From a virus, in IMG/VR virus record IMGVR_UViG_3300045988_077029, positions 1 through 34,452 of that record: DNA of 34,452 nucleotides; one strand, written 5' to 3'. This document shows, one piece after another, positions 7,571 through 32,872 of the stretch. Below the pieces are notes generated by a model. That model was not told where the DNA came from. It saw only the letters and a list, made by a program, of their open reading frames with translations, and made no database searches. The position numbers and the translations under genes are program-made. Position 1 is the stretch's first letter. Every line of letters starts with the position of its first letter.

Positions 7571-8143
7571 TCATCGTGCATACACCCCCTTTGCCAAAAC
7601 GGGGCTTGCATTTCCGCGTGAGTATGATATACTGTTCTTGCAATCGTTTTCAGACTCGAACCTCTGAGAACATGAACGCTTCGACGTGCCACCGTCGGGG
7701 CGTTCTTTTTTTGCGCCGTCAGCGTAGATCACTTGATAGGCCGCGGCAATGGTCTCGCGCAGCTCTTGCACGATGACGTCGAATTCTGATCGCTCGCTCT
7801 CGTCGATCACGCCGTCCTCGGCGATGCGCAGCAGCCCGTTGATGCAGTCCGCCGCGTCTCGCAGCCGGTTGGTCAGTGTGATCGTCGCCTGCGGCAGGGG
7901 CTTTGTCTCCACCTCCGGCAGCACGCCCAGCTGATCCGTCGCGCGGCTGTGCTCCAGCGCGAGCCACGGCAGATCGTAGACCTCAACCATCTTTGCGACC
8001 ACGCCGTCCGGTGGCACGCGTCGGCCGCTCTCATATTGTTTCAGACTTTCCGCCGAAAGTCCAAGCCGCTCGGCTGCCTCTTCCTGCGATAATCGGGTAG
8101 CCTTTCTTGCCCTTTGGTATAAATTTTGGTATTTGGGATGCAT
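7571..8143 (-). CDS. XRE-family HTH transcriptional regulator (190 aa)
   Basis: RLSQEEAAERLGLSAESLKQYESGRRVP. AAAGGAGAA Shine-Dalgarno. Confidence 0.75.
   Translation of the reverse strand: MHPKYQNLYQRARKATRLSQEEAAERLGLSAESLKQYESGRRVPPDGVVAKMVEVYDLPWLALEHSRATDQLGVLPEVETKPLPQATITLTNRLRDAADCINGLLRIAEDGVIDESERSEFDVIVQELRETIAAAYQVIYADGAKKERPDGGTSKRSCSQRFESENDCKNSISYSRGNASPVLAKGVYAR
7606..7633 (+). promoter_or_regulatory. Sigma70-type promoter TTGCAT-16-TGaTATACT (extended -10)
   Basis: Read directly on the plus strand. No plus-strand CDS follows, only a hairpin terminator about 40 nt downstream. Confidence 0.55.
7640..7712 (+). ncRNA. Candidate ~70-nt antisense sRNA (lambda oop-like), antisense to the 3' end of the XRE gene
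   Basis: Bounded by the promoter at 7606-7633 and the intrinsic terminator at 7674-7712. Confidence 0.5.
7674..7712 (+). terminator. Rho-independent terminator (13-bp stem with two G-U pairs, 6-nt loop, U7)
   Basis: gaacgcttcgacg-tgccac-cgtcggggcgttc followed by ttttttt. Confidence 0.7.
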
Positions 8144-8172
8144 GGATATTTTCTCCTTTCTGTGCTATGGTT

Positions 8173-8385
8173 TTACCAGGTTGACATCCACCGTGCCAGA
8201 GGCACAATGGGGATGATGTACCGTCTTCCGACCTTCTTGACGGGGAAAGTCTTGTCGTTGAGCAGCGCCATGCGGTCGACGCACAACAGCTTTTCGCTTT
8301 GTTCCATCGTCAGCACCTCCTGCCCCTCGTAGCGCTCGCGCAGCGCTTGCAGCTGGTCGCGAAAATCCTCTCGCTCTCGCGGCAT
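8173..8385 (-). CDS. Excisionase-family / MerR-like HTH DNA-binding protein (70 aa)
   Basis: LTMEQSEKLLCVDRMALLNDKTFPVKKVGRRYIIPIVPLARWM fits the HTH_17 pattern. ATG at 8385 lies just after the cro-like stop. Confidence 0.6.
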   Translation of the reverse strand: MPREREDFRDQLQALRERYEGQEVLTMEQSEKLLCVDRMALLNDKTFPVKKVGRRYIIPIVPLARWMSTW

Positions 8386-8387
8386 GT

Positions 8388-8591
8388 TTACTCGCTCCTT
8401 TCGTCTCGATAAAGATCGTTGATCGTGCACCCGAGCAGCTGTGCGATCTGCGGCAGCGTCTCGGACGACGGCGCGTTCACGCCGCGCTCCCAGGCGCTCA
8501 CAGTCTGCACCGTCACGCCCAGATGCTTGGCAAGGTAGCTCTGGGAGACGCCCTTGCGCTCGCGCATCGCCTTGACATTCAGTTTCAGCAA
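8388..8591 (-). CDS. Cro-like XRE HTH regulator (67 aa), first gene of the early operon
   Basis: RERKGVSQSYLAKHLGVTVQTVSAWERGVNAPS. TTG start with AAAGGAG 8 nt upstream. Divergent from the cI-like gene. Confidence 0.8.
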   Translation of the reverse strand: MLKLNVKAMRERKGVSQSYLAKHLGVTVQTVSAWERGVNAPSSETLPQIAQLLGCTINDLYRDERSE

Positions 8592-8643
8592 AATATCGGC
8601 TCCTTTCTTCCTCTTGATTTTTTCGCCGTGCCGTGATACTCTC

Positions 8644-8660
8644 TAAATTGTAAATTGATA
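8644..8660 (+). repeat. Switch-region box A, TAAATTGTAAATTGATA
   Basis: Direct repeat of box B (the 13-mer TAAAYTGTAAATT has one mismatch). Confidence 0.5.
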
Positions 8661-8800
8661 CCCAGTCAAAAAGAAAAAGAACGGGGGAGCGAGGACGAGT
8701 CGAACGCCCTTCTGGCAGTGGAGGAGACCATCCAAGCGATAGCCCAGGGAGAGAAACAGCAAGAGTATCCAATCATTTGCCGCGCACCGGCCGCTCCGTA

Positions 8801-8828
8801 TTCAATTCCTAAACTGTAAATTTATGAT
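8801..8828 (+). promoter_or_regulatory. Possible promoter of the cI-like gene, TTCAAT-16-TATGAT
   Basis: Read directly. The predicted start falls in the first ATCGGA/TCCGAT palindrome. Confidence 0.35.
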
Positions 8829-8829
8829 A
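8810..8829 (+). repeat. Switch-region box B, TAAACTGTAAATTTATGATA
   Basis: Direct repeat of box A, 166 bp away. Confidence 0.5.
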
Positions 8830-8830
8830 A

Positions 8831-8875
8831 ATCGGATTTTTCCGATTGTCAATACCGCAATCGGACTTTTCCGAA
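8831..8875. promoter_or_regulatory. Two operator-like palindromes, ATCGGA-tttt-TCCGAT (8831-8846) and ATCGGA-cttt-TCCGAA (8860-8875)
   Basis: Read directly. 29-bp centre-to-centre spacing, between the divergent cro-like and cI-like genes. Confidence 0.6.
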
Positions 8876-8908
8876 GTTTTGTCTAATTGTCCAATTACAT
8901 ATAGGTAG

Positions 8909-9247
8909 GTGATCCCCATAGAAACAGAAATCTTTGTGCAGAATGTCATAAAATACTGCGACATCAAGGGGATTAAGCCAACTATTGCGTGCGCAGAGAG
9001 CGGAGCCGGAAAAGATTTACTTGGACAGCTAAAAAATCGCGGGACGATCCCGTCTGTCGCCAAGGTGCAGCTCCTCGCGCAATACCTCGGCTGCACCGTC
9101 TCCGACTTGCTGGGTGAAAAAGCAACGAGCAGCCCGCCGTCCGAAGACAGCGAGCTGCTGCAAAAGATCAGCGCTCTTGCACCGGAACGGCGCAAGCAGG
9201 CGGAAGAATATCTGGACTTTTTGATAACTCAGCAAGGAAATCAGTAA
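8909..9247 (+). CDS. cI-like XRE HTH repressor (112 aa, no S24 peptidase domain)
   Basis: GKDLLGQLKNRGTIPSVAKVQLLAQYLGCTVSDLLGE. GTG start, uncertain. Divergent from the cro-like gene. Confidence 0.7.
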   Translation: MIPIETEIFVQNVIKYCDIKGIKPTIACAESGAGKDLLGQLKNRGTIPSVAKVQLLAQYLGCTVSDLLGEKATSSPPSEDSELLQKISALAPERRKQAEEYLDFLITQQGNQ

Positions 9248-9338
9248 ACCGCGCCCGGCTCTCGGGCGTCAGCTGACGGAGCTTGTCTTGGATGCGCTGG
9301 AGATCTGCGGACTTGCCGCAGTCATTTGGCTCATGCAT
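9168..9338 (-). CDS. Unlisted 56-aa ORF, convergent with and overlapping the 3' end of the cI-like gene
   Basis: GGAGGG Shine-Dalgarno 7 nt before the ATG. MHEPNDCGKSADLQRIQDKLRQLTPESRARFTDFLAELSK... Below the 60-aa cutoff of the ORF track. Confidence 0.3.
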   Translation of the reverse strand: MHEPNDCGKSADLQRIQDKLRQLTPESRARFTDFLAELSKSPDILPPACAVPVQER

Positions 9339-9354
9339 GATAGGTCCCTCCGTT

Positions 9355-9397
9355 AAAAAAATCGCCCTCTCCGCCTCTGCAACACCGAAGAGGGCGG
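9355..9397 (-). terminator. Terminator/attenuator-like hairpin with U7 on the minus strand, directly upstream of the small-ORF RBS
   Basis: Minus strand: CCGCCCUCU ... AGAGGCGG ... AGAGGGCG-A-UUUUUUU. The 5' arm can pair with either of two near-duplicate 3' arms. Confidence 0.4.
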
Positions 9398-9418
9398 CAG
9401 GCTTGCGCCTGCACCATC

Positions 9419-9427
9419 ATTGTACCA
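9419..9427 (-). promoter_or_regulatory. Extended -10 element TGGTACAAT on the minus strand
   Basis: Read directly. Would start a transcript through the 9355-9397 hairpin and the small ORF. Confidence 0.35.
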
Positions 9428-9472
9428 GCGCCGTCCGGCCTTTTTGGTCGAAACGGCTGGTAAATAAAAACG

Positions 9473-9489
9473 GTGCCCAAATCGGACAC
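9473..9489 (+). repeat. Dispersed pseudo-palindrome copy S1, GTGCCCAAATCGGACAC
   Basis: The 19-mer 9473-9491 is identical to 15031-15049. Lies 16 nt upstream of the DUF4236 gene ATG. Confidence 0.8.
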
Positions 9490-9506
9490 CGGAAAGGAAG
9501 CGTCAC

Positions 9507-10190
9507 ATGGGCAGACGATACCGCAAGAGCATCAAGCTCGGCCCGCTGCGAATCAATCTCTCGAAGTCTGGCGTTGGCTACAGCGTCGGCAATAAATTTT
9601 ACCGCGTCACCAAAAAGGCCAACGGCGGCATGCGCACGACTGCGACGCTGCCCGGCACCGGCATCAGCGATGTCAAAGACTACAGCAAAGATCAGGTAGA
9701 GGAGGCGGCTCAAATGGCCCGCACAAGAAGAAAGAAAAAAGTTCCCGCAATTGTCAGTGGCGCGGCCGCGCTGTTGGTGCTCATCGGTGTCGTCACCGGT
9801 GACGGCGATGACGCGTCTAAGGATAAGGATGACACGCCCTCTACCCGTCAGGAGCAGACGGTCAAGCCATCGACTTCCACCAAGACCACAACGACCACCA
9901 AGACGGACACGACTACACCGTCCACGTCGACCGAGACCAAGACTGAAACGACCACGCCGTCCACACCAACCGAAACCCCTGCCCCCGCGCCTCAGCCGTC
10001 TACCAAGACGGACGCAAACGCGCAGGACTCCCAGCCCGCCACGCAAAACGAGCGCAAGGTTTATCGCACCAAGACCGGCAAGCGTTATCACTATGACTCA
10101 CATTGTAACGACGGCGACTATTACGAGGTCACGCTCTCCGATGCTCAAAACGCCGGTCTGACGCCGTGCAAAAAGTGCGCGGGCGGCTGA
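9507..10190 (+). CDS. Membrane protein. DUF4236-like N-terminus, TM helix, Thr/Pro-rich linker, C-terminal Ada-like Zn motif
   Basis: MGRRYRKSIKLGPLRINLSKSGVGYSVG...LPGTGIS. AIVSGAAALLVLIGVV. TTTTTKTDTTTPSTSTETKTETTTPSTPTE. KRYHYDSHC...GLTPCKKC. Confidence 0.7.
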   Translation: MGRRYRKSIKLGPLRINLSKSGVGYSVGNKFYRVTKKANGGMRTTATLPGTGISDVKDYSKDQVEEAAQMARTRRKKKVPAIVSGAAALLVLIGVVTGDGDDASKDKDDTPSTRQEQTVKPSTSTKTTTTTKTDTTTPSTSTETKTETTTPSTPTETPAPAPQPSTKTDANAQDSQPATQNERKVYRTKTGKRYHYDSHCNDGDYYEVTLSDAQNAGLTPCKKCAGG

Positions 10191-10191
10191 T

Positions 10192-11241
10192 ATGGCCAAA
10201 TATCCAAAATACTACGTCCGGCCGGACGGCCTGCATGAGACGATCATCCGTATCAACGGCAAGCGCAAAGCCTTCCGCGGCAAGACCGACCGCGAGGTCT
10301 GGGAGAAAGTCAAGGCGTTCGACCGCGCCGCCGCCGAGGCCGAGGCCAAACAGGAAACCATAGAAGCGACCACTTTTGCCTCCCTCGCGGATGCCTGGTG
10401 GGACGAGATCGAGCCAACGCTCGAGCACAACTCAACCAAAAACTACCGCCCTGCCCTCAAGCGGGCAAAGGACGAGTTCGGCGACTGCCAGGTCTCGGAG
10501 ATCACCGCGCAGATGATCGACGCTTATATCCACGACTTTTCGGCCACTCGTGCCCGCAAAACGGCCGCGACGCAGTTGCAGATCATCAGGCAGATTTTGC
10601 GCTTTGCCGTTGTGCAAGGCGCATTGCCATATAATCCGGCCGAGGCGCTGCGCCTGCCCAAGGGCCTGAAAGTGACTTACCGCATGCCGCCGGACGAAAG
10701 CCAGGTCAAGCTTATCAAAGCCCACGCCAAAGATACCCCCTTCGGCCTGTTTGCGGCGCTGGTCTACTATACCGGCTGCCGCCGCGGCGAGGCGCTGGCC
10801 CTCACCGGCGCGGACATCGACCGCAAGGCAAAGCGGATCAGCATCACCAAATCCGTGTACTACGTCGGCAACCATGCGCAGATCAAGCAGCCGAAGACCG
10901 AAAAGGGCACGCGCGAGGTGCCGCTCCTCGACGCTCTCGACAAGTTGCTGCCGAAGCGCCTGCCCAAAGGCTACCTTTTCGCCGAGCCCAATGGTGAGCC
11001 CATGACGGACGACCATTTTTTCGATGCGTACAAAAAGTATCAACAGGCATCCGGCGTCACGGTTACCCCGCATCAGATCCGCCACGGCTACGCGACCGCA
11101 CTTTACGAGTGCGGCGTTGACTTTAAGGCGATGCAGGCCCTTCTCGGCCACGCTCAGCTCTCCACGACGATGGATATCTATACCCACGTCCGGCAAAACT
11201 CCATCAAAGCCGCCGAGGAGAAAATGCAGGAGAATTTTTAA
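10192..11241 (+). CDS. int: Tyrosine recombinase / phage integrase
   Basis: YYTGCRRGEALAL, HQIRHGYATAL, LLGHAQLSTTMDIYTHV (R-H-R-Y catalytic pattern). The start lies 1 nt after the upstream stop. Confidence 0.92.
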   Translation: MAKYPKYYVRPDGLHETIIRINGKRKAFRGKTDREVWEKVKAFDRAAAEAEAKQETIEATTFASLADAWWDEIEPTLEHNSTKNYRPALKRAKDEFGDCQVSEITAQMIDAYIHDFSATRARKTAATQLQIIRQILRFAVVQGALPYNPAEALRLPKGLKVTYRMPPDESQVKLIKAHAKDTPFGLFAALVYYTGCRRGEALALTGADIDRKAKRISITKSVYYVGNHAQIKQPKTEKGTREVPLLDALDKLLPKRLPKGYLFAEPNGEPMTDDHFFDAYKKYQQASGVTVTPHQIRHGYATALYECGVDFKAMQALLGHAQLSTTMDIYTHVRQNSIKAAEEKMQENF

Positions 11242-15049: not shown

Positions 15050-15664
15050 TTATTTTGTTGATCTCTGGATCATCGTCACGACTTCCTGCCGCGTGATAAA
15101 TCTCTGCGGCGCGCTGCCGTCCGTGATCTTTTCGGCCTTTGCCTTTTCCCAGTCTGCCTTTGCCCAGGTCGCCACGGGCTTCGTGCCGAGCTGCGCAAGG
15201 TAGTTGTCCATCATCTTGTTAAACGTTGCCTGATCCATGTACTCCTCCATTTCCGGCGGGTACTTGCCCGCCAAAATCATACTGCCGGAATATCTCCCGT
15301 GGTCATCCCACTGGATGTGCGGCTTATCGGGGAATTTCGTCCAGTCCCCGCCCCACGAAAAGCCCACCTGCTTGCCGATCTGCCCGCAGCGGGCGAAGAA
15401 CGACGGATCGTCGTACTCATGCCCCTTGACGTTTTTGCAAATGTCGAACGCAAGCCCCGCCTTGACAGAGTGGAACGTCGGGCGCGTCGCGGTCTTTGCC
15501 GCGTAGCCCATGCGCGCAAGATAGCGCTGGTACTCGTCGTCTCGCACCGTCTCCGTCACGAGCACCGGAAGACCCGCCTCCTTGCAGAGGTCGAGGAAGA
15601 TGGCGCAGTTTGCCCGCACGTCGGCGCGCAGGTCGGCAATGTCCCTACTGTGATACATTGTCAA
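15050..15664 (-). CDS. Endolysin, peptidase M15 (VanY / L-Ala-D-Glu peptidase-like)
   Basis: FHSVKAGLAFDI, WGGDW, DKPHIQW (H-D-H zinc ligand pattern). Follows holin-like genes. Confidence 0.8.
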   Translation of the reverse strand: MTMYHSRDIADLRADVRANCAIFLDLCKEAGLPVLVTETVRDDEYQRYLARMGYAAKTATRPTFHSVKAGLAFDICKNVKGHEYDDPSFFARCGQIGKQVGFSWGGDWTKFPDKPHIQWDDHGRYSGSMILAGKYPPEMEEYMDQATFNKMMDNYLAQLGTKPVATWAKADWEKAKAEKITDGSAPQRFITRQEVVTMIQRSTK

Positions 15665-18101: not shown

Positions 18102-18377
18102 TCATAAAATGTTGATTATATGGTACACGTCCACCGCTCCGTAGACCACGGCAGCAACGTATAGCGCATACCGCGCCGCCCTCTCCCGTTGGCGGGACAG
18201 CCACCACAGCAGCCCCCACACGATGATGACCTTGTAACCTACCATCACCGTGACCTCCCGCATCAGCGGGTTTAGCTCCACCGCCCCGCCATGCAGCGCC
18301 CAGAGCGTGCATGATAGGTCGATCAGGTTGAGCGCGTAAGCGATGACAGCGGCATGTGCTCTTTTATAACTGTCCAT
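18102..18377 (-). CDS. DUF5658-like small membrane protein (91 aa)
   Basis: LIDLSCTLWALHGGAVELNPLM plus further TM helices. Overlaps the upstream gene by 55 nt. Confidence 0.5.
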   Translation of the reverse strand: MDSYKRAHAAVIAYALNLIDLSCTLWALHGGAVELNPLMREVTVMVGYKVIIVWGLLWWLSRQRERAARYALYVAAVVYGAVDVYHIINIL

Positions 18378-18886
18378 ATATCCTCCGCAGTAATCCCATA
18401 GTCGCTCAATGCACCAGGAATTTTAGCCATCGGTTTCGTGCACAGTTCCCGGATGGTCGTCATATCCGAATTGATGGAAAAATGCACTACCGTCTGGGTA
18501 TATCCGCGATCGCTTGTGCGAGCCCAGGAACCGCATTTCCGTCCGTCTACCATTAAGTCGTTTCCATCAATAAGAGCATCTATCTTACGACTTTCTAGCA
18601 TATCGCGCACAGCAGAAATGGATTCGTAACCGAAATTGCTTCCACCATTTTTTAGCTCCATGATGGATAAATCTCCCGGGAAGCAAATAATAGCCCCTCC
18701 GAGGTGCCACGCCTGATACAAAAATGCCCCATTGCGTGCACATACATTTGTGTCGATGTATTGAGGATGCCCGTAAACTACGGCTAGCTCACTCGAAAAC
18801 AAAAGCACAAGTCCATCTGATTGCCTTTCCATCAAATCCTTTGCAGCAGCCATTGCACCCTGATTATCAACGGTTCTATAAATCAT
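18323..18886 (-). CDS. Lipoate/biotin protein ligase-fold (BPL_LplA_LipB) catalytic-domain homologue (187 aa)
   Basis: By-eye alignment to E. coli LplA. HLGGAIICFPGDL aligns with SGGGAVFHDLGN. GNDLMVDGRKCGSWAR aligns with RNDLVV..GDRKVSGSAYR (Lys retained). VVHFSINSDMTTIREL aligns with HGTLLLNADLSRLANYL. Confidence 0.6.
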   Translation of the reverse strand: MIYRTVDNQGAMAAAKDLMERQSDGLVLLFSSELAVVYGHPQYIDTNVCARNGAFLYQAWHLGGAIICFPGDLSIMELKNGGSNFGYESISAVRDMLESRKIDALIDGNDLMVDGRKCGSWARTSDRGYTQTVVHFSINSDMTTIRELCTKPMAKIPGALSDYGITAEDIWTVIKEHMPLSSLTRST

Positions 18887-20403
18887 CACGTTACCCTCCT
18901 TATCCCAACACTAAAAGAGCTACTTACAGTTAATCCTTTGCTGTCCTTTTCTGTTGAGTATAAGCGGAAAATAGGCTTTGAATATACCTTCTCGTTTGTA
19001 AACTCATAGTCGCAAGATTTAACAACAGTTATCTTTTCATGCTCTTCAGTCTTTCCGTCTACGTAGTCTGTCCATTTGAATAACCGCATATATTCAGGAT
19101 CATCGTTTTCGGCTAATAGTTCCATAGTCCCATCAGTTTTATCGTATCTGTAATTTTTTGCAGAATACTTTACATCAGGCTGTACTTTTCCGTTATTGGC
19201 TATTCTAACTTTTTCGATGTCTCGTATCGTAACGGGGTCGTTGTCGATTAACAACATTGGTAATAGAGTCTTCCCATCGGTGATGGATTGATAGTATAGC
19301 CCGGACCTATCTGCCGCTTTTAACACATCTGCAAGAGACGCTTTTTCGTCTGGGATGGGGTCATAAATTTCAAGCAATTCAAGTGAGTATTCCACCGATG
19401 CGGTATATGTCGTATTGGGGGCAAATTTAATTTCTCGACCAAGATACGAGTTTGGTATCGAGGTTTCGTCTCTGCTCGAAGATATAGAGCAAACGTAAAA
19501 AGAAAATTCAGCGCCATTGACTTTGGTATCAAATTCGATGTAGTTGCCGGGTGGAAATCCACGAATCATAATCGTGTTGTAACTGTTGTGTTTAACCCCA
19601 GCGGTCTCTTTGGTAACGGTATATCCTGGATCTTTGTTGTACGGGTGCTGAAGCTGTATACCAGCCCATAACCCATCCGCATTAGCCAAAGGTGCCGGTG
19701 TGCATGCCTGTGCGCTGACGCACGATAGCCTATATTTTCCCCGTGGCAGCACTCCACACGTAATTTTGATCGTGTTATCTCCAATCAACTCTCCGGGGAT
19801 TGTTTCTGGCATCGTAAATTTCGAGCGAACATTTGCGCCGCGCGTCGAGCCATCATCTTCAATCGAGGCTACCTGTTGCTCCCCATAAGATGACCCGTAA
19901 GGAAAGTATTTCCAATAGCCGGAACTATCGCTGGATTTAATGCTGGTCATATCTTTTATTTTTAGGGGTAAGTCAACACCGCCATAAGCAGATAACTTAA
20001 ATCCCTTTTTATAAAAGTACCAAGCAATTTCCTGACCGAATTTTTTGCGCCTTTCCGCATACTCGCTCGGGTCCGTAAAACTTTCTTCTTTTAGCCATGT
20101 TTGAAGATCTGTCATACCGGGCAGCTTTGGGACAACAAGCTTGCCGAGCATATCCAGGATGTACAGTTCTACGAGCATTTCGTCTGTGGACGATACCCTT
20201 GTACTGATTACGCCTAGCAATGCTGCCCACCGCAGTGCCCCCTGCGTGCTCATGCCAACGGCAAGCCCCGCTAAAAAGCTTGCCTTGTCGTAACCGGCGG
20301 CGCTGGACGGCGTGACGGATACAGCACTCGCCGGTATCCCAACATTCCGCGTCTTGAGCATTTTCCCCGCCATAATGCCCTTAACAAAGCAATTTTTGTC
20401 CAT
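18886..20403 (-). CDS. Tail fibre / receptor-binding protein (505 aa), visibly AT-richer than the rest of the genome
   Basis: GGAG Shine-Dalgarno before MDKNCFVKG. Position after the Tal-like gene. 1-nt stop/start overlap with the LplA-like gene. Confidence 0.55.
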   Translation of the reverse strand: MDKNCFVKGIMAGKMLKTRNVGIPASAVSVTPSSAAGYDKASFLAGLAVGMSTQGALRWAALLGVISTRVSSTDEMLVELYILDMLGKLVVPKLPGMTDLQTWLKEESFTDPSEYAERRKKFGQEIAWYFYKKGFKLSAYGGVDLPLKIKDMTSIKSSDSSGYWKYFPYGSSYGEQQVASIEDDGSTRGANVRSKFTMPETIPGELIGDNTIKITCGVLPRGKYRLSCVSAQACTPAPLANADGLWAGIQLQHPYNKDPGYTVTKETAGVKHNSYNTIMIRGFPPGNYIEFDTKVNGAEFSFYVCSISSSRDETSIPNSYLGREIKFAPNTTYTASVEYSLELLEIYDPIPDEKASLADVLKAADRSGLYYQSITDGKTLLPMLLIDNDPVTIRDIEKVRIANNGKVQPDVKYSAKNYRYDKTDGTMELLAENDDPEYMRLFKWTDYVDGKTEEHEKITVVKSCDYEFTNEKVYSKPIFRLYSTEKDSKGLTVSSSFSVGIRRVT

Positions 20404-20408
20404 CCCTA

Positions 20409-21779
20409 TCACTCCGTCCACTGGATTGCCATTTCCGCCCCGTCTGAGTAGATGATCTTGACGGGAACTTTCTTTCCACCAACCGTCGCAAACTCTACTC
20501 CATACTTAAGCGGCTCTGAAATACCCTCTACCGTCTCAAAAAAGCTTCCCTGCTCCCAACTTGCGAAATTAAGTCCCACGGTTTTCCGCAGCCCGAAGAG
20601 GTCCAAATACCCCTCGTCCAGCGCGGCAAGACCGAGCTGTTTGCCCATGCTCGTCTCATACGTCAGCTCCAGCGAGTTCTGCCGCTTGACGAGGTAGCCG
20701 CGCTGCTTGCCGTTGTTGTCGCCCGCGCCGAAGACGTCCACAGGGTAGTAGTATTGGCCGTCCGATTGGAACGAAATCGCGCGCTTGACCTGCTCCTCGT
20801 ACTGATAGACCATCACCGGCCAGCTCGTCTGCTTGGTGGTGGTAAAAATGCGCTCGCCATTGGCATAGGGATAGCCGTCCGAGCCGATAGACGCGCCCGC
20901 GGGGTCTGCCTCCCAGTAGATCAGCTCCCCGTTCGGGTTTTTTGCCTGCTCCGTCGTGCTTTTGGCGATGCCCGCGACGAACTCAAGGCTCTGCCCCTCC
21001 ACGCGAATAAAATTGTCGTCCGTTGTGTCTTTAGCAAGGTACTTGACCACCCGGCGCGAGGTCGACAGCCGGTTGACGCTCAAGTCCGCGATCTCGCCGA
21101 AGGCGGAATACAGCGCGTCCGCCGAAAGCTGCCCGGAGACGTCCACATTGCCGTCGAGCTTAATGTAGCCGGTGTAGTTATTGGGCCCAACTTTGAGCGT
21201 GATCGTCGCGGTCGTCTGGCCATCCGGGCTGGACGCTGATGTGACGGATAGGCTGATTTTATCGACCGTTTGCGTGATGTCCGACACCCGCCCGTCAATG
21301 CCCTCCACCTTGAGGTTGATCTCCTCGCTGGTTTTGGTAATGAGCGACCGCGTCTTTGCCATGTTGCGCTCGATCTGCCGCTGCGTCGGCGATTTGTACG
21401 GGTATTCGTCGTCCAGCTCGTCCGCGTCCGGCGCGGAGATGTCCGGCGCGAGCAACGGATCAAACGTCATGTCCAGCGCAATGAGCGGCACATAATGCCC
21501 GTCCACCGTCACCGCGTCGCCAAGCTCCACCGCAGGGTCGAGCAGCGCCTTGCTGCCCTCGTATCCAATGTGCTTGTATCCGGAGACTTTGGCGAGGATC
21601 GCCGCCGCCATTGCATTCGTGCCGTCCGGCTGCAAGGCCGTCAGCGTCCGCCCGGTGTCCGATCCGGACACACCGACCACATCGCCGGTATCGTTCAGCA
21701 GCTCCACTTTGGAGATAGGCTTCGACGCGATGCCGGGGGAAAACTTCGCCAGCCGCCGCCCTAAATAGGTTTTGTCCAT
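20409..21779 (-). CDS. Tail-associated (Tal-like / minor structural) protein (456 aa)
   Basis: Position downstream of the Dit-like gene. Start MDKTYLGRRLAKF. Confidence 0.55.
   Translation of the reverse strand: MDKTYLGRRLAKFSPGIASKPISKVELLNDTGDVVGVSGSDTGRTLTALQPDGTNAMAAAILAKVSGYKHIGYEGSKALLDPAVELGDAVTVDGHYVPLIALDMTFDPLLAPDISAPDADELDDEYPYKSPTQRQIERNMAKTRSLITKTSEEINLKVEGIDGRVSDITQTVDKISLSVTSASSPDGQTTATITLKVGPNNYTGYIKLDGNVDVSGQLSADALYSAFGEIADLSVNRLSTSRRVVKYLAKDTTDDNFIRVEGQSLEFVAGIAKSTTEQAKNPNGELIYWEADPAGASIGSDGYPYANGERIFTTTKQTSWPVMVYQYEEQVKRAISFQSDGQYYYPVDVFGAGDNNGKQRGYLVKRQNSLELTYETSMGKQLGLAALDEGYLDLFGLRKTVGLNFASWEQGSFFETVEGISEPLKYGVEFATVGGKKVPVKIIYSDGAEMAIQWTE
21655..21671 (-). repeat. Dispersed pseudo-palindrome copy S5 (plus strand GTGTCCGATCCGGACAC, 7-3-7 perfect arms)
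   Basis: Read directly. Minus strand reads GTGTCCGGATCGGACACCGG. Confidence 0.6.
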
Positions 21780-21789
21780 GTTGCCCTCC

Positions 21790-22494
21790 TCACACAAGGA
21801 TGCGCACGCCGCCAAAGGTGATGGCTTTTCCGGTCTCCGTGATAAGATAGTGGGTCTCAGCGGGCATGGAGTTCAAGCCTACCAACAGAAGCTTGCCCTC
21901 GTCCGTGAGGGTCCAGTTGCCCGCGTTGGCGACTGCGATACGCCCAAGCGCCTCGCGCATCGTCATATCTCCCTTGTCGTCCACGGGATACTGCACGGGG
22001 AACGCCGCATCCAATACCGTGCGGCTGTCCACTGCTACGCCCATGCGCGCCGCGATATCCGCGACCGCCGTCGCCGCCGGCATCGGCCAAGTCTTTGCGT
22101 CATAGCTGCTGTCGAGCCACGTCTCCTCGGCCTTGAGCATCGCATCATACCCGTGCACACTCAAAACGCCCGTGACCCGGTCAGTCTTGCGCGTGGAAAA
22201 GAAAAACACTCCCTTCGGGATCCACTCGCTCACCTGCTCGCCCAGCCGCAGCCGCATGTAGACCTCAATTTTTGCCTGCCGCGGGATCGTCCCCTGCGGA
22301 TAGATCTCAAAGTCGATCTGCCGCGCGCAGCAGTTTCCGATGCCGAAATCAGAGTACAGTCCGCCGTCGATCCGCAGCGATCCATCTACAATCTTGTCCT
22401 CGCCGTAGGTGACGCCCGCGATCACAAGCTTGACCTCCTTACGGTGCCCTGGACTGGCAAGCAGCGTCCGCCATAAATCACTTACACTGTGCAT
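21790..22494 (-). CDS. Distal tail protein (Dit-like), 234 aa
   Basis: Size and position after the tape measure protein. Confidence 0.55.
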   Translation of the reverse strand: MHSVSDLWRTLLASPGHRKEVKLVIAGVTYGEDKIVDGSLRIDGGLYSDFGIGNCCARQIDFEIYPQGTIPRQAKIEVYMRLRLGEQVSEWIPKGVFFFSTRKTDRVTGVLSVHGYDAMLKAEETWLDSSYDAKTWPMPAATAVADIAARMGVAVDSRTVLDAAFPVQYPVDDKGDMTMREALGRIAVANAGNWTLTDEGKLLLVGLNSMPAETHYLITETGKAITFGGVRILV

Positions 22495-22498
22495 GCGC

Positions 22499-22870
22499 TC
22501 ACCTCTGCGTAAAGTTGAGCGTCTTGCCGCTCCAGTATCGGCCCGTCTGGTCGCGCAGCAAATACGCGAGCTCCAGCCCGTCCACGGTCATGTCCTGCGT
22601 CACCGGCGTGCTGCCGAGCGCAGGGTTCTCATAGGTCACGCTCAGCGTCGCGCTGCGCAGATCTGCGGCCAGCGCCGCCACCTCTGCGTCGGTGATGTCG
22701 TTGAGCTGTGCGCTGCACCAGCCCTGCCAGCGGATCACCGTACTGTGCCGTTTTTTGTCCATCGTCACGACCTCGTCGCTGTATACCGGCGTAATGCCCG
22801 CGCCGAACCCGTACTGGTTAAAAAGTGCCGTGCGGTCGTTGCCGTTGATTTGAAAAGTAAAATTCTTCAT
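22499..22870 (-). CDS. Tail component hypothetical protein (123 aa)
   Basis: ORF track. 4-nt overlap with the tape measure stop. Confidence 0.55.
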   Translation of the reverse strand: MKNFTFQINGNDRTALFNQYGFGAGITPVYSDEVVTMDKKRHSTVIRWQGWCSAQLNDITDAEVAALAADLRSATLSVTYENPALGSTPVTQDMTVDGLELAYLLRDQTGRYWSGKTLNFTQR

Positions 22871-24414
22871 TGTCTTGCCCTCTGGTCCTGCTGCTGGTAC
22901 CGCGTCACCGTCTTGCTCACGGCCTTGCCGTCCAGCGTGGTCGTCAGGTTGATGACGATGTCAGCCGGCTTGCCGCTGCCGCGGTCGCTGCGGTAGTCGT
23001 CCGCCTCGCGCCGCGTCAGCACGCGTTCGCCCTCGTGCAGGATCGCCGGATAGCCGTCATATGGGACGTAATCAAGGCCGTTGGCGTACTGCCGCACGGT
23101 AGACGTCGTCTTTCTCGTGGTCTTTGATTGCCCCTTGGTTTTAGTCGTTTTCTGCTTTTCCTCCACGCCGGCGAGTTTCTTAAAGGCGGCGATCGCGCTG
23201 TTGACAAAGCCGATCAGTTTGGTCACAGCGTCGGCCGCGATATTCACCGCGCCTGCAAACACGCTTTTCATCTTCGCAGCCACCGGCGCGAGCGCCTCGC
23301 CCAGGCGGCCCATTGCCTCGTCCAGCTCGCCCTGCGCCTCGTTGTACTCGATGATATCCTCGTTGGCGTCTCGCCATGCCTGGCCCGCCTGCGGCAGGTT
23401 TTGCTTGGAAAGCTGGTCCAGCACGATCTGCGCGCGCTCGGACGAAGTATTCGCCGCCGCGAGTTTCTCGTTGAAATCGTCTTCGCTCTCGCCCGCCCAG
23501 TTGAGCACGTCAGCAAAGGTGCCCGTCACCTTGCCGGTCTGGATCGTCTCATTGATAGCCTCGGACAGGCCGTCGATCGGGATGCTGTCGCCGTAGGTGG
23601 CCCACGCGCCGGTCGTCGCGTCAATCAGCGTCATGAGGTCGCCCTGCTCCAGCCCAATGGCCTGCAGGTTGGCCACGGTCGTCGCCGCCGTCTGCGAGTC
23701 GCCCAGCACGCCATTCAGGCGGGTGTAGGCCTCTGCCGTCTGCTCGGTTGTGTAACCGGCCTCTTTCGAGCTGGTCTCCAGCGTGCCCATGATCTTGCGG
23801 TATTCCGCCGTATCGTCGACCACGCCGATGATCGCGTCGCCCAGCTCTTTGAGCCCGCCGACGATCGCGCCGCCGATCAGCGCACCCTTGAGGTTGGTGA
23901 GCATCCCCAGCAGGTCGCCGCCTTTGCCCTTGACGCTGAAACCGTTCTGCAGCACGTCCGTAAACTTCTCGATGCCGCTCTGCGCACCGTCAGTTTCTTT
24001 GCCGAACTCGTCGATGGACTTCGCGCACTTGTCGGCGCTCTTGCGCGCCTCGTCGAGATACTTCTCGTTGTCATCCAGCGCATCGTTCATGTCGATCAGC
24101 TCTTTTTTTGCCCGGTTGAGCTGCTGGCGGTAGTTGTCCGTGCGCTTGTCGTTCTCGCCGTAGGCATCGGCGGCGTCCTCTACAGCTTGTTCCAGGGCCT
24201 TGACCTTCTCGGTCTGCTGCTCCTGAGCACGGCGCAGCAGCTCATTCTTCTTGGTCAGGGCTTCCATCGTGTTCGCCTGGCCCTTGAATTCTGCGTCGGC
24301 AAGGCTCATTTCGCTGCGCAGCGTCTTGAGCTCGCTGTTTGCGTCCGACATGGAGCGCTTGAATTCAGTTTCGCCCTCGATCGCCAGCCGCGTCGTGATT
24401 GTCCTCGTCGCCAT
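22867..24414 (-). CDS. Tail tape measure protein (515 aa)
   Basis: Long coiled-coil N-terminus, G/A-rich centre, position after the G/GT chaperones. Confidence 0.8.
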   Translation of the reverse strand: MATRTITTRLAIEGETEFKRSMSDANSELKTLRSEMSLADAEFKGQANTMEALTKKNELLRRAQEQQTEKVKALEQAVEDAADAYGENDKRTDNYRQQLNRAKKELIDMNDALDDNEKYLDEARKSADKCAKSIDEFGKETDGAQSGIEKFTDVLQNGFSVKGKGGDLLGMLTNLKGALIGGAIVGGLKELGDAIIGVVDDTAEYRKIMGTLETSSKEAGYTTEQTAEAYTRLNGVLGDSQTAATTVANLQAIGLEQGDLMTLIDATTGAWATYGDSIPIDGLSEAINETIQTGKVTGTFADVLNWAGESEDDFNEKLAAANTSSERAQIVLDQLSKQNLPQAGQAWRDANEDIIEYNEAQGELDEAMGRLGEALAPVAAKMKSVFAGAVNIAADAVTKLIGFVNSAIAAFKKLAGVEEKQKTTKTKGQSKTTRKTTSTVRQYANGLDYVPYDGYPAILHEGERVLTRREADDYRSDRGSGKPADIVINLTTTLDGKAVSKTVTRYQQQDQRARQ

Positions 24415-27057: not shown

Positions 27058-28737
27058 TCAGGCCGTGGCAACCAGCGCTGCGCCGATGCCGATCACGCGG
27101 CCGCTGGCGTCAATGTCGCATACGGTGACATAGTTACCGCTCGCCGCGGCAACGCCCTTGTCCGCGGGCACATCCTTCCAGCTCTCGCCCAGGGCCGCGC
27201 CCTTGGCCACGCTGACGGGCACGCCGGCGACCATGTACTTGAGCTTGCTGCCGGTGTTGCCGGTCACGGTCAGCGTGCTCTTGCCGCTTGCGGGCTTCGC
27301 CGCGGTCACGACCAGCGCGGCCGGATCGCCGTTATAATCGGTCGCAAAGCTCAGCGACGTGGTCGGCGCCGTGTTGTTGTAGTTGACGATCACAAAGCCC
27401 TCGCCAAAGACCGGCTTGCCGTCGAATCTCTGGAGGCCCTTGAAGATCGTGCAGTTCTGGATGAAGAGCGGAATGTCGCTCGATTCGATCTTCGCGCCGC
27501 TGCGCTCGACCCAGCGCTCAAGATCCATGTAGCCGCCCGCGATGTCGTAGTCGCTCATAAAGTCGCATTCGACGATCGTGCCGCCTACGACGGGCATCGT
27601 GTCCTCCATGCCGGGCAGCAGCATCGCCGCGCTGTTCCACGCCATCGCGCGGGCCTTGAGGTCCATGTGCGTTGCGCGGTTCATGACCCACACGAGATTG
27701 CCGTTGGAATAGTTGGGCTTTGCCTTGCTCAGCGCCGCGACCAGCGGACGGAAGAATGCAGCGCCCTCCGCGCTGAAGAGGTCGAGCTTTACGACGTTGC
27801 TCGTGTGCAGGTCAGTAAATGCCCCCTGTTTGGAGCCCCACCAGGACGGCTTGCTATCCGCGGCAAGGCGATGGACAAAGCCAACCGGCTTGTTGTCGCC
27901 GTCGCCGTAAACGCCCGCCTTATCCACAGCAAGTCCGATCGCCTGGCCGAGATAGTCGATGACGGTGGCGAGCAGCTCAAGGTTGTCGTCGTCCTCCAGC
28001 GTGGGGTTAGGCACGACCACAAAGCCGCCGACCATGTAGCCGTCCAGCTCGATCTGGGAGAAGTCGATGTCCAGCTCGTTGAGTCTACCAAGCGCCTCCG
28101 TCCAAACCGCCTCGGGGATCTTGCCCGCGATATTCTGGCGGGCCGTGCCCTTGAGCGGCGTGACGTGCATGTACTGGTACAGCTTGCTGTAGCGCTCCGT
28201 CGTGTCGCGCAGGATTGGCAGCAGCGTGTCGGGGATGCCAAGATCGGCGCCCTTGACGTCGCGCTTCTCGTTCTTCATCTCACGCACGCGCGTCAGAAAC
28301 GCCTTGACATCGTCGCGCTCCATCTGTGCGCTCAGGTCGCGGACAGCAATGCCGCGGATTTTCTCACGGGTTTCAGTAGGCATTTTCATCGCTCCTCTCT
28401 TCTTCATACCGCCCTTGCGGCCGCGGGCCTCATCGCCCTCATCAGCGCCGTCTACAGCATCCTGCACGGTGCTTTCCAGTTCGTCGATTTGGTCGGTCAG
28501 ATCCTGCGCAGCCTCTTCCGCGGCGTCCAGCGCATCTTCGACGTTTTTCTTTTCCTCCTCAAAGGCCGCAACGGCTTCTTCGACCGCCGTTTTCTCCTCG
28601 TCGGTGGCAGCAGCCTCGATGTCGGCCGCGAGCTCGTCCTCGCGCTTCTTAAATCCGGCCTGCTGCTTGCGCAGTTCCTTGATCTCCGCGTTCTTCTCGT
28701 TCAGCTTCTTGCGCAGGAGCAAAACTTTCAGTGCCAT
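27058..28737 (-). CDS. Major capsid protein, HK97 fold, with an N-terminal coiled-coil scaffold (delta) domain (559 aa)
   Basis: Start MALKVLLLRKKLNEK 3 nt after the protease stop. Long coiled coil followed by a capsid-like domain. Confidence 0.85.
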   Translation of the reverse strand: MALKVLLLRKKLNEKNAEIKELRKQQAGFKKREDELAADIEAAATDEEKTAVEEAVAAFEEEKKNVEDALDAAEEAAQDLTDQIDELESTVQDAVDGADEGDEARGRKGGMKKRGAMKMPTETREKIRGIAVRDLSAQMERDDVKAFLTRVREMKNEKRDVKGADLGIPDTLLPILRDTTERYSKLYQYMHVTPLKGTARQNIAGKIPEAVWTEALGRLNELDIDFSQIELDGYMVGGFVVVPNPTLEDDDNLELLATVIDYLGQAIGLAVDKAGVYGDGDNKPVGFVHRLAADSKPSWWGSKQGAFTDLHTSNVVKLDLFSAEGAAFFRPLVAALSKAKPNYSNGNLVWVMNRATHMDLKARAMAWNSAAMLLPGMEDTMPVVGGTIVECDFMSDYDIAGGYMDLERWVERSGAKIESSDIPLFIQNCTIFKGLQRFDGKPVFGEGFVIVNYNNTAPTTSLSFATDYNGDPAALVVTAAKPASGKSTLTVTGNTGSKLKYMVAGVPVSVAKGAALGESWKDVPADKGVAAASGNYVTVCDIDASGRVIGIGAALVATA

Positions 28738-28739
28738 AA

Positions 28740-29324
28740 TCAGTGTGCCTCCAGTCTTTTTTTCATATTTTCGCGCCAGACCTGCGTCTCGCGCTGCCTG
28801 ATGGTCTCGAGCTGCTTCCGTCTGGCGCTCACGCTCGTCGCCTCGTAGGCGGGAAACGTGCAGACGCTTACCTCGTACAGCGGATTGACCTTTTCGATTT
28901 CCCAGCGGCACCGGCCGTCGCCGAGATCCACAAAGGTCTCTCTCTCGATATCAAAACCAAACGAGCACTGGCTGACGTCACCCCGCTGGACGCGGGCATA
29001 GAGGTTCATGGCGTCGGTATCGTCTCGGTTGACTTCAATCTGTCCCCAAAGGCCGGTCTCGTCCTGCTTCAGCAGGAGCGTGCCGGCTGTCGTGCGTCCC
29101 ATGACGAGCGTCGTGTCGTGGTTGACCAGCGCGCGCACGTCCTGTGTTAAAACGCCCTCGAATGCGCCCGGCTTGATGACCTCCTCCGCGCCGTCCCACA
29201 GGGGATAGGGGGAGTCGAACACGGCAAAATAGCCCTCGATATAGAGCTTGCCGTCCGCGTCGCGGGTCTTAAAGTTCTGCGGCAGCGAGCGTACCTGTCG
29301 CTGCTTGCGGTCATTCGTTTCCAT
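28740..29324 (-). CDS. Prohead maturation protease, HK97 family
   Basis: IEGYFAVFDSPY...LVNHD...G pattern. Lies between the portal and capsid genes. Confidence 0.8.
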   Translation of the reverse strand: METNDRKQRQVRSLPQNFKTRDADGKLYIEGYFAVFDSPYPLWDGAEEVIKPGAFEGVLTQDVRALVNHDTTLVMGRTTAGTLLLKQDETGLWGQIEVNRDDTDAMNLYARVQRGDVSQCSFGFDIERETFVDLGDGRCRWEIEKVNPLYEVSVCTFPAYEATSVSARRKQLETIRQRETQVWRENMKKRLEAH

Positions 29325-30507
29325 CGTCGCTGTCTCCTTTCAGCTTTTTCTGGTTGCCGATCATCTCGGCCGGGATATAGTTTTCCAGCATGACCAGCTC
29401 TTCCAGACCGTCGATTGGGCCGAGGTCGAGCCAGTCGCGCACCTCGTTGCCGCTCATCAGGCCGCGCACATACTGCGCATCGCCTACGTCGGCCAGCTCC
29501 GTCAGCGTGTAAGCATAGAGCTTGCGCGTCGAGAACTTAAAATACATCTCTGGCGAGAGCAGCAGCTTTTTCGTCAGCTCCTGCGCGATCGTCGTCGCCA
29601 GCGGAACCACCATGCGCCGGATGTAGTTGTTATACTCCGGCTGATTATACGCGCCCACGCCGATCAAAAAGGGCGGCACGCCCAGTGTCGCGGCAACGGT
29701 CTTGCGATCCAGCTCGACCGTCTCGTTGATGGCGAGATCGGCCAGCGTCAGCGGCTTGACCTGCTGCACGTCGATCAGATCTGCTGGAATGATCCATGGC
29801 GCGCCCGTCTCGTCTTCGGAGAGGTACTGCTCCGCGAGGCGCTTGCGGCCCGCCTCGCTGCTGAATTCATCGGCCATCGCGTCGACCTTGACAATGACGC
29901 TCGGCTTCCACTTATCCGCCATAAAGCGGTTGGTCGTCGCTGCCGCCTGCTTGAGGTTTTGCAGCACGTCCCGCAGCTGGATCGTCACGCCGCGGCCGCG
30001 CCACGGCTGCGCCGGATCTACGTTGAACGGAAAGTGCAGCACCTCGCCTGGCTCAAACACGTTGCCTTTCCACAGCACTTGATAGCTGTTATCCGCCGTC
30101 GCATTCGCGCTGGCCCCCGGCATGGGGACGAGGTCAGCGAGCTTGCCGCTCTGCGTCACCGGCAGCACAAAGGCATTGCCCGTCGATAGCATCTGCGTCA
30201 CGATCCACTCGACAAACGTCTTGCGTGTCGACAAAGAGTATGGCGTCACGTCGATAAACCGGCTCAGCTCATTTTTCTCGCGCACGTCTCCGGCCTTGCC
30301 GTTGCGCATCAGCTGGATAGTTGATGCGCCAATGATGGACGCCGTCACCGCAATCCCCGTCGCCGCGTCCGGCGATTGCAGCAGCGAGGAATAGCCGCTC
30401 ACGCTCAGGCTGTCAAAGCTATCTCCTAAAAACAGACCCAGCGCCGAGTTATCGCCGCGGATGCGGGGCGGCGCTTTCCGCACCCGGCTTTTAATATGCT
30501 TTGTCAT
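29311..30507 (-). CDS. Portal protein, HK97 family (398 aa)
   Basis: Size and position. ATGA overlap with the terminase stop. Confidence 0.8.
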
Positions 30508-32639: not shown

Positions 32640-32661
32640 CGCCTCACCTCCGTGTTTTCTC

Positions 32662-32751
32662 CGGCGCATTCCCCGCTCTTCGCCTTGGCCGCGAAGAACG
32701 AGGACTGAAAGGAAGATCATCCATGTCCGCCGCAAAGAGCGGGGAACGCGC
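32662..32751. repeat. Long-range 22-bp inverted repeat (19/22 complementary) in the terminase leader
   Basis: GGCGCATTCCCCGCTCTTCGCC (32662-32683) and CGCAAAGAGCGGGGAACGCGCC (32730-32751). Confidence 0.6.
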
Positions 32752-32763
32752 CGGAAATTTTCT

Positions 32764-32780
32764 CGTGTCCGATTTGGGCA
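32764..32780 (-). repeat. Dispersed pseudo-palindrome copy S3 (minus strand GTGCCCAAATCGGACAC)
   Basis: Plus strand GTGTCCGATTTGGGCAC. Lies 125 nt upstream of the terminase ATG in the HNH-terminase gap. Confidence 0.8.
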
Positions 32781-32852
32781 CCGCCGCCAGAGCCGGGAAC
32801 GGCCAGCCGGCCGAACCGACAGCGTCCAAGAGTGGTGGGCAAAGTGACCTTC

Positions 32853-32872
32853 GCGCGGCTGCGCGCAGCCGC
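32853..32872. repeat. Perfect 20-bp palindrome CGCGGCTGCGCGCAGCCGCG
   Basis: Read directly, in the non-coding HNH-terminase gap. Confidence 0.7.

Follow-up and report, generated by a model that had tools for sequence, protein, structure and literature searches.

A minimal LplA-clade protein co-encoded with putative receptor-binding proteins in phages of gut and rumen Clostridia

Enzymes of the lipoate/biotin-ligase fold are housekeeping enzymes of cofactor attachment, and to our knowledge none of them is established as a participant in either the assembly of virions or the recognition of hosts. What, then, is a gene of this fold doing at the end of a phage tail module? The question is raised by the IMG/VR virus record IMGVR_UViG_3300045988_077029, the whole 34,452 nucleotides of which (positions 1 to 34,452; hereafter the window) were analysed. 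An earlier note, made from the letters of this stretch alone, assigned an open reading frame (ORF) at 18323–18886 to the fold of the lipoate-protein ligase LplA, and offered three roles for its 187-amino acid (aa) product: a virion- or fibre-modifying enzyme, an auxiliary factor manipulating host lipoylation, or a repurposed fold acting as a fibre chaperone. The ORF is real and lies on the minus strand, where it adjoins a gene of 505 codons in the following arrangement:

18323–18886, minus strand: coding sequence of the LplA-like protein, 187 aa, a minimal LplA-clade protein (ATG at 18886–18884, TGA at 18325–18323)
18884–18888, minus strand: TGATG stop/start overlap at the passage from the 505-aa gene to the LplA-like gene, sequence GTAACGTGATGATT
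18886–20403, minus strand: 505-aa partner, a putative receptor-binding protein (RBP) or tail fibre, placed after the tape measure, distal tail and minor tail genes

The product of the LplA-like gene is a minimal, single-domain protein that belongs, as a highly divergent member, to the LplA clade within the lipoate/biotin-ligase superfamily. Family profiles were needed to reach this assignment, because searches with the single sequence were only marginal. The Pfam model PF21948 (LplA-B_cat) matched the window protein alone with E=2e-4 and 21.8 bits, under its 27-bit threshold, and a single-sequence phmmer search of the PDB returned two lipoate-protein ligases at E=0.44–0.74. At the level of the family the superfamily catalytic domain is supported: 13 of 20 homologues matched PF21948 individually, the best at 2.1e-7; a 20-sequence profile retrieved from the PDB only LplA-type chains and one chance C-terminal match (best hit 5ij6, E=2.3e-6); and a 143-sequence profile reached Listeria LplA1 (8cri) at E=1.6e-11, with ten LplA/LipT1 sequences preceding any noise. 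LplA-type ligases are the sole relatives of the phage protein detectable by sequence, and no LipB chain was returned in the family-profile searches of the PDB.

The structural evidence agrees. An AlphaFold (AF2) model computed from the family alignment is confident (predicted local distance difference test, pLDDT, 91.3; predicted template modelling score, pTM, 0.87), and Foldseek matched it with probability 1.0 to LplA, bovine lipoyltransferase, Plasmodium LipL1, archaeal LplA-N and LipB. For the LplA/LipT1/LipB group the E-values were ∼1e-12 to 1e-9 and the template modelling scores (TM), taken over the query (TMq), 0.72–0.78; biotin ligases were weaker and came much further down the list. 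LplA of Listeria monocytogenes (LplA1, 8cri), Enterococcus faecalis (5ij6) and Escherichia coli (1x2g) has the same fold, with TM 0.70–0.78, while the best mutual fit was to the single-domain LipB 2qhs (TMq 0.77; over the target, TMt 0.70). In the BFVD library of viral structures the matches were LplA-like only, a giant-virus LplA homologue (Bodo saltans virus) among them; the top match, A0A8S5QKT7 of Siphoviridae sp. ctVCm11, is 89% identical to the window protein (TM 0.97) and bears the automated UniProt name ‘Lipoate-protein ligase A’. The same virus carries a homologue of the neighbouring fibre gene (A0A8S5QLB8). The fold proposed by eye in the earlier note is therefore borne out by the family profile (E=1.6e-11) and by the model and its LplA/LipB structural matches.

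How much of the active site of these enzymes does the phage protein keep? The E. coli lplA and lipB genes were aligned to a family hidden Markov model (HMM) built from 170 members that share 20–40% identity, and the conservation values given below refer to these members. In LplA the lipoyl pocket is lined by W37, V44, R70, V77, H79 and H149, adenine is bound by N83, T151 and the backbone of F78, K133 touches oxygens of AMP, and the lipoate loop is 69-RRxxGGG-75 within the wider motif RRxxGGGxVxHD; LipB is a Cys169/Lys135 dyad acyltransferase that requires its RGG loop for full activity (PMC9307952). The corresponding positions in the window protein are:

18695–18700, minus strand: G63-G64, corresponding to LplA G74-G75, a remnant of the lipoate loop; 88% and 96%
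18557–18562, minus strand: N109-D110, corresponding to LplA N121-D122 (‘NDL’); 100%
18536–18538, minus strand: K117, corresponding to LplA K133 and LipB K135, the catalytic or ligand-binding lysine; 100%
18416–18442, minus strand: loop C149-T-K151-P-M-A-K155-I-P157, family-specific, after helix 142–148, at the position of the LipB catalytic-Cys loop and of the start of the LplA adenylate loop
LplA W37: F30, hydrophobic
LplA V44: V37, hydrophobic
LplA R69: Q58, variable
LplA R70: A59, variable
LplA V77: I66, Ile in 74%
LplA H79: C68, variable
LplA D80: F69, Phe in 53%
LplA N83: D72, Asp or Asn in 92%
LplA T151: S137, Ser or Thr in 92% (Ser in 90%), in a strand whose register is ambiguous by two residues

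The alignments drawn by eye in the earlier note were essentially reproduced by the profile, which sets ‘HLGGAII..PGD’ opposite ‘SGGGAVFHDLGN’ and ‘NDLMVDGRKCGSWA’ opposite ‘NDLVV..GDRKVSGSA’, so that K117 falls on LplA K133 and the retention of the catalytic lysine stands. The first block was one residue off-register, HMMER placing G39 opposite the G of VVIG, and ‘VVHFS’ can be set against ‘HHGTL’ in registers that differ by two residues. On this alignment, the part of the LplA pocket that accommodates an adenine-nucleotide-linked acyl group is retained: the GG loop, the hydrophobic positions, the D/N and S/T adenine-contact positions, the N-D motif and the lysine. The positions that contact adenine and ribose/phosphate are all represented (D72, S137 and N109-D110), whereas only G63, G64 and I66 are left of the lipoate-loop motif RRxxGGGxVxHD.

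Other parts are missing altogether. LplA is a protein of roughly 330–340 aa with a long adenylate loop and a C-terminal domain, the adenylation of lipoate requiring this domain or a separate LplB subunit; the 187-aa phage protein has neither the loop nor the domain, and ends where the catalytic domain ends, as the earlier note had observed in reporting the absence of the C-terminal accessory domain. The family as a whole is without the C-terminal domain, the long adenylate-binding loop and the Arg and His residues of the lipoate loop, and has gained a Cys-x-Lys-x3-Lys-x-Pro loop that is new with respect to LplA. In the window protein this loop continues as C149-T-K151-P-M-A-K155-I-P157-G-A-L160-S-D-Y-G and is shorter than the adenylate-binding loop that it replaces; C149, K151 and P157 are conserved in 99% of members, and K155 and L160 in 98%. 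C149 lies 32 residues past K117, right after helix 142–148 of the AF2 secondary structure, and C169 of E. coli LipB lies 34 residues past K135, in the loop that follows the corresponding helix. This arrangement suggests that C149 and K117 may form a LipB-like Cys/Lys pair.

The window protein scored 13.1 bits against the LplA equivalog model TIGR00545 of NCBIfam, for which the cutoff is 280 bits; two relatives (P0028 and P0031) were also far under it. None of the LipB, LipM or LipL models in NCBIfam matched the window protein, and the family HMM aligned to E. coli LipB with only 3.8 bits, around the lysine. Judged by its sequence, the window protein is not an ordinary enzyme of the lipoate pathway.

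In the window the 505-aa ORF ends GTA ACG TGA (V-T-stop), with the TGA at 18888–18886, and the last base of this stop is also the first of the LplA-like ATG (GTAACGTGATGATT), which confirms the TGATG overlap read in the earlier note. The two genes share an unusual composition, as had also been noticed. The LplA-like gene has a GC content of 46.6% and the 505-aa gene one of 45.0%, both with a GC content at third codon positions (GC3) of 0.46, as against 57.9% GC for the window overall and a GC3 of 0.73–0.83 in the flanking tail and head genes. The low-GC stretch stops precisely where the LplA-like gene ends, the next gene (encoding a DUF5658 protein) having 57.6% GC and a GC3 of 0.73. Since GC and GC3 are anomalous in both genes and the boundary is sharp, the two form a cassette of foreign composition, and in this window they travel jointly. 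A scan for promoters and terminators gave no signal between them above shuffled expectation. A dN/dS of 0.11–0.19 against six relatives indicates that the LplA-like gene is under purifying selection, and its product has no predicted signal peptide or transmembrane segment (count 0).

The pairing is not peculiar to the window. Linkage was assessed in a sample of 32 loci that carry a family member, the window included, together with one locus that carries a gene fusion (L035); the loci come from assemblies, IMG/VR contigs and metagenome-assembled genomes (MAGs), and the sample is skewed towards close relatives of the window, which make up 9 of the 13 loci with a partner of the window type. In 28 of the 32 loci an upstream gene on the same strand, encoding at least 200 aa (mostly 400–750 aa), directly adjoins the LplA-like gene. 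With starts chosen by HMM, the stop-to-start distance was between −14 and ∼+17 nucleotides (nt) in all 27 informative loci, 13 of which have an overlap; the few gaps that seem larger belong to N-terminally extended variants, with a Shine–Dalgarno sequence and an ATG 10–20 nt past the stop. The translational coupling that the earlier note proposed from the TGATG junction is thus supported across these loci.

The partners fall into two unrelated families. Homologues of the 505-aa protein precede the LplA-like gene in 13 loci of the window type (the window's relatives being L001–L003, L009 and L020–L027), and BspA-type proteins with LRR_5 repeats, some also with PKD domains, are the partners in 13 others, with Pfam E-values down to 4e-63. 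Among the more diverse loci sampled, LRR_5 proteins, and not the window's fibre type, are the commonest partners. Loci of the LRR_5 type carry the LplA-like gene as the final one ahead of the lysis cassette (CHAP/SLH or amidase endolysin; r1t or Dp-1 holins). At one locus (L010) the true upstream neighbour is an LRR_5+PKD protein, and at another (L005) the LplA-like gene lies ahead of genes for a 503-aa protein and an LRR_5 protein, so that the pairing survives an altered gene order. A 334-kb viral contig (L032; IMGVR_UViG_3300028888_000045, positions 7944–10413) has an operon headed by an LplA-like gene, with a gene for a 225-aa protein and one for a 406-aa LRR_5 protein (E=5e-89). On this contig the LplA-like gene stands outside any recognisable tail module, divergent next to genes for an SNF2-family helicase and a DUF4422 protein. 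The pairing with LRR_5 proteins therefore exists outside the tail modules of small siphoviruses, possibly in a jumbo phage.

At locus L035 the two partners are joined in one polypeptide. This 605-aa protein (P0130) has an LRR_5-related N-terminal part, which matches the LRR_5 region of the partner at locus L017 with E=2e-9, a Pro/Thr-rich linker in which no residual ribosome-binding site or start codon was found, and a complete LplA-like domain. Separately, the BFVD matches included A0A516LAG4, an unnamed viral protein of 682 aa in which Foldseek recognised an LplA-like domain (E=1.3e-8, TMq 0.58); to judge from its predicted structure, the LplA-like fold may here have been joined to a larger viral protein a second time, independently. 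Taken together, the loci establish that the LplA-like gene is co-encoded, usually stop to start, with a putative RBP of one type or the other.

The identity of the window's own partner is less clear. Its start may be the ATG at 20403 (505 aa) or an upstream GTG at 20421 (511 aa), and the label of tail fibre or RBP is positional only: the place that the earlier note relied on, right after the tail genes, is confirmed, but the protein had no Pfam or PHROG match and only weak structural ones. Its AF2 model is mediocre (pLDDT 63), with N-terminal helices followed by beta-sandwich domains, and Foldseek gave weak matches (TM ≤0.2) to the Epf adhesin and to domains resembling carbohydrate-binding modules; with these values, assignment to a known RBP fold fails. 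At loci L001, L002 and L003 the LplA-like protein is 57, 54 and 45% identical, respectively, and the partner 43, 38 and 26%, showing that the LplA-like protein evolves more slowly.

A tetrapeptide in the conserved N-terminal segment of this partner (...AAGYDKASFLAGLAVGM...) deserves mention. The segment contains DKAS, with the codon for K40 at 20284–20286 on the minus strand, and DKAS is the tetrapeptide that surrounds the lipoyl-lysine in the lipoyl domains of E. coli E2p. K40 is invariant in 16 close-to-moderate homologues, while the segment at L003 reads DYDAPSFKAGL; the prediction for this region is a helix of low confidence, not a lipoyl-domain hairpin. The likeness is probably a coincidence.

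When a profile was run exhaustively against 1.84 billion representative proteins, 580 clusters at 50% identity passed E≤1e-3, and 395 passed E≤1e-10. Nearly all members are stand-alone proteins of 175–195 aa. The MAGs in which they occur are assigned to Oscillibacter, Ruminococcus, Christensenellaceae, Flemingiibacterium and other gut or rumen Clostridia, and the family, large as it is (at least 580 clusters), appears to be confined to phages and prophages of these bacteria. One sub-branch (P0031, P0060 and P0088; loci L029–L031 and L033) has a conserved N-terminal extension of ∼30 residues, M-x-W-Y-F/Y-x-N-x-x-x-Y-x-Y-P....

Comparison with known single-domain relatives helps to frame what the protein could do. 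Like the phage protein, LipB (2qhs, 1w66) has a single domain of similar size and no adenylation apparatus; K135 of LipB aligns with K117, and the invariant cysteine follows at nearly the same distance, two residues out of register. The RGG-loop Arg and the PCG motif of LipB are absent from the phage protein, however, and the N-D motif of the latter is LplA-like. The archaeal LplA-N Ta0514 of Thermoplasma acidophilum (2ars/2c8m; TMq 0.72–0.74, TMt 0.58–0.59) is, like the phage protein, a stand-alone LplA-clade catalytic domain without a C-terminal domain of its own, and LipM and LipL of Bacillus are single-domain LplA-clade transferases of pre-activated acyl groups. Unlike the phage protein, Ta0514, LipM and LipL are proteins of ∼245–280 aa that retain the RRxxGGGxVxHD loop and have lipoyl domains as their targets. 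The bipartite LplA-N has an LplB partner, whereas no LplA-C- or LplB-like family was found among the strong Pfam hits of the phage proteome. The phage gene differs from LplA genes in its setting, which is a tail module, beside an RBP gene, and not a group of lipoate metabolism genes.

Two further systems resemble the phage pair in other respects. The Tfa protein of lambda and gp38 of T4 share its position, being encoded directly downstream of the fibre or RBP gene, inherited with it as a cassette and occasionally fused to it; the likeness is positional only, there being no homology to the LplA-like protein, whose fold is that of an enzyme with an invariant active-site constellation. HlyC and RtxC are small dedicated lysine acyltransferases encoded beside, and co-expressed with, a large secreted target (HlyA in the case of HlyC), with acyl-acyl carrier protein (acyl-ACP) as donor. 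They have an unrelated fold and would be functional analogues only, by hypothesis.

We propose, with a probability that we put at about 0.45, that the LplA-like protein is an acyl-transfer or acyl-ligand-binding protein dedicated to the RBP encoded beside it. It would be active inside the infected cell, late in infection, and its chemistry would be an acyl transfer of the LipB/LipM kind by means of a Cys/Lys pair, using a pre-activated donor (acyl-ACP, acyl-coenzyme A or acyl-AMP) and making no adenylate of its own; in the minimum version it would be a factor that binds an acyl-nucleotide. Its client would be the adjoining RBP, which might undergo lysine acylation or a ligand-dependent maturation. 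The pocket is most likely still in use, because the adenine, phosphate-carbonyl and acyl residues are kept at 90–100% among members with 20–40% identity while the surfaces vary. Transfer of an activated acyl group is the most economical chemistry because the parts that make an adenylate are gone, the protein has the size of LipB, and an invariant Cys lies near the position of the LipB Cys. The RBP is the most likely client because an RBP-like gene is the only constant genomic partner and the coupling is stoichiometric. The more specific version of the proposal, in which phages of gut Clostridia covalently acylate their RBPs (with octanoyl, lipoyl or another acyl group drawn from acyl-ACP or acyl-coenzyme A) by a dedicated, phage-invented LplA-derived Cys/Lys transferase encoded beside the RBP, strikes us as unlikely as it stands.

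Several observations weigh against this proposal. The equivalence of C149 and the catalytic Cys of LipB is not established, the two being two residues out of register on ungapped extension and LipB being undetectable by sequence. The polar residues of the lipoate loop (R69, R70 and H79 of LplA) are lost, and in LipB R71 of the RGG loop matters for full activity (PMC9307952). The acceptor is also elusive: comparison by hhalign found no motif common to the two partner families, and a single recognisable acceptor domain in both is rejected at that sensitivity (probability 0.1%). No acceptor resembling a lipoyl domain was found either, since neither Pfam nor Foldseek placed a lipoyl-domain or GcvH family in the 505-aa partner, and no lipoyl-domain, GcvH or ACP partner was among the top 25 of the 49 Pfam families of the phage proteome. 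A gene placed after a fibre gene and occasionally fused to its C-terminus is the classic signature of a fibre chaperone or tip adhesin as well. The P0130 fusion counts for little, because it is a singleton from one assembly. Finally, no cultured phage with the gene was found: tblastn with four members against 50,697 GenBank phage records gave zero matches.

What else could the protein be? It might have no catalytic role and serve the RBP as an accessory built on a recycled LplA fold, acting either as a folding or assembly chaperone, in the manner of lambda Tfa or T4 gp38/gp57A, or as a distal subunit or adhesin carried on the virion, in which case the conserved pocket would bind the RBP or a ligand on the host surface instead of catalysing a reaction. 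We consider this, the main rival, doubtful. Much of the genomic evidence suits it: the gene is right downstream of, and translationally coupled to, an RBP-like gene in essentially all loci; it is the final gene of the tail module ahead of the lysis genes; it is once fused to the C-terminus of an RBP-like protein; and the RBP and the accessory would move as the single low-GC cassette seen here. Loss of the adenylate loop and of the lipoate-loop Arg and His also speaks for it. Other observations speak against it. One family serves two unrelated partner folds that have no segment in common, and chaperones specific to one fold do not usually do so; conservation is highest at the positions of the LplA nucleotide/acyl pocket, at 100% over 170 divergent members; the hypervariable region typical of tip adhesins or Tfa C-termini is absent; the partner is the faster-evolving of the two; and no PHROG chaperone or tail family matches the LplA-like protein. 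The fibre-modifying and fibre-chaperone options of the earlier note thus both survive, the strict invariance of the pocket tilting the balance towards a working pocket.

The client might instead lie outside the virion. Working within the cell, the enzyme might modify the envelope of the host or the receptor of the phage, so as to exclude superinfection or keep progeny from sticking to debris; it would be inherited with the RBP since the specificities of receptor and RBP must match, and cassettes of an RBP and a receptor-blocking protein occur in other phages, for example pb5/llp of T5. The window phage carries an integrase and is temperate, and in 12 of the 13 window-type loci the gene is followed directly by that for DUF5658, a small membrane protein that might cooperate in loci of this type. 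Yet DUF5658 is missing from all LRR_5-type loci and stands outside the low-GC cassette, the LplA-like gene is part of a late structural operon, in which it is translationally coupled and where promoter signals do not exceed chance, its product has no signal peptide or transmembrane segment, and we know of no LplA-fold enzyme that acts on envelope polymers; we regard this explanation as improbable. Still more improbable, in our view, is an auxiliary metabolic role, in which a true lipoate- or octanoate-protein ligase or transferase would raise or redirect the lipoylation of E2 or GcvH in the infected host, although the protein is an LplA homologue with the catalytic lysine, a protein 89% identical to it is publicly named as a ligase, and LplA homologues exist in giant viruses (Bodo saltans virus). 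The LplA equivalog model was failed by a wide margin (13.1 against 280 bits) with no LipB, LipM or LipL model in its place, the C-terminal domain, the adenylate loop and the counterparts of R69, R70 and H79 are gone, the linkage is invariably to the RBP gene of a tail module and not to metabolic or early genes, and the family appears to be confined to phages of anaerobic Clostridia. The host-lipoylation option of the earlier note is disfavoured accordingly.

The remainder of the window is that of a compact temperate siphovirus that bears an integrase. The minus strand carries, in order, genes for terminase, portal, protease/major head protein, tape measure, distal tail and minor tail proteins, followed by those for the 505-aa protein, the LplA-like protein and DUF5658, and then, on the same strand, by genes for two unassigned proteins, a holin and an M15 endolysin (15050–15664). 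The closest neighbours of the pair are:

22867–24414, minus strand: tape measure protein
21790–22494, minus strand: distal tail protein
20409–21815, minus strand: minor tail protein
18102–18377, minus strand: DUF5658 membrane protein, 91 aa, ∼3 transmembrane helices (PF18902, E=6e-14), overlapping the last 55 nt of the LplA-like gene

DUF5658 was considered as an obligate third partner and rejected, since it follows the LplA-like gene directly in 12 of the 13 window-type loci but is missing from those of the LRR_5 type, and has genome-typical GC outside the low-GC cassette; nothing relevant on it appeared in the literature searched. Neither PHROGs nor PADLOC returned anything for the LplA-like protein (PHROG searched to E≤0.1), its partner or DUF5658, so that these searches tie none of the three to a known phage family or defence system.

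Some other features of this genome may be recorded. A 796-aa ORF (30504–32894, minus strand) matches the terminase small subunit (phrog_361) over residues 90–198 and large-subunit families over residues 200–784, and is either a fusion of the two subunits or an over-extended call spanning two in-frame genes. The 617-aa major head ORF (27058–28911, minus strand) matches Peptidase_S78 (E=6e-46) and Phage_capsid (E=3e-26), and phrog_10 over residues 56–597, which suggests a protease–capsid fusion. A ParB-like/helix-turn-helix protein (2734–4155, minus strand) and a tyrosine integrase are both present (regions 2734–4933, minus strand, and 10192–11241, plus strand); the proteome also gives a ParA-type ATPase signal (AAA_31/CbiA/ParA/MipZ), for which the listing names no ORF and ORF 4148–4933 is only a tentative source. 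A phage with both a partition system and an integrase may have an episomal or dual lifestyle.

The annotation of the fold is already public as an automated UniProt label, and is not new. In the literature searched (LplA or BPL_LplA_LipB together with phage, tail fibre or RBP) we found nothing relevant on the family, its function or its linkage to RBPs. What appears to be undescribed is the existence of a large phage-restricted family, its reduced architecture with the C-x-K-x3-K-x-P loop, and its linkage to RBPs, in particular those of the BspA-type LRR_5 kind.

If the protein is an enzyme, the finding points to an unrecognised post-translational modification or maturation of adhesins in abundant, hard-to-culture phages of gut and rumen Clostridia, which would be relevant to the prediction of host range and to RBP engineering. 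Should acylation of the RBP prove true, these phages would have a counterpart of HlyC-type toxin activation, and recognition of the host, or engagement of the membrane by the tail tip, would require the acyl group. If the protein is non-catalytic, it would be an RBP chaperone or tip subunit of a new class, derived from a metabolic enzyme. In either case the LplA-like gene is a practical marker, the adjoining gene probably encoding the RBP in phage genomes that are otherwise unannotatable.

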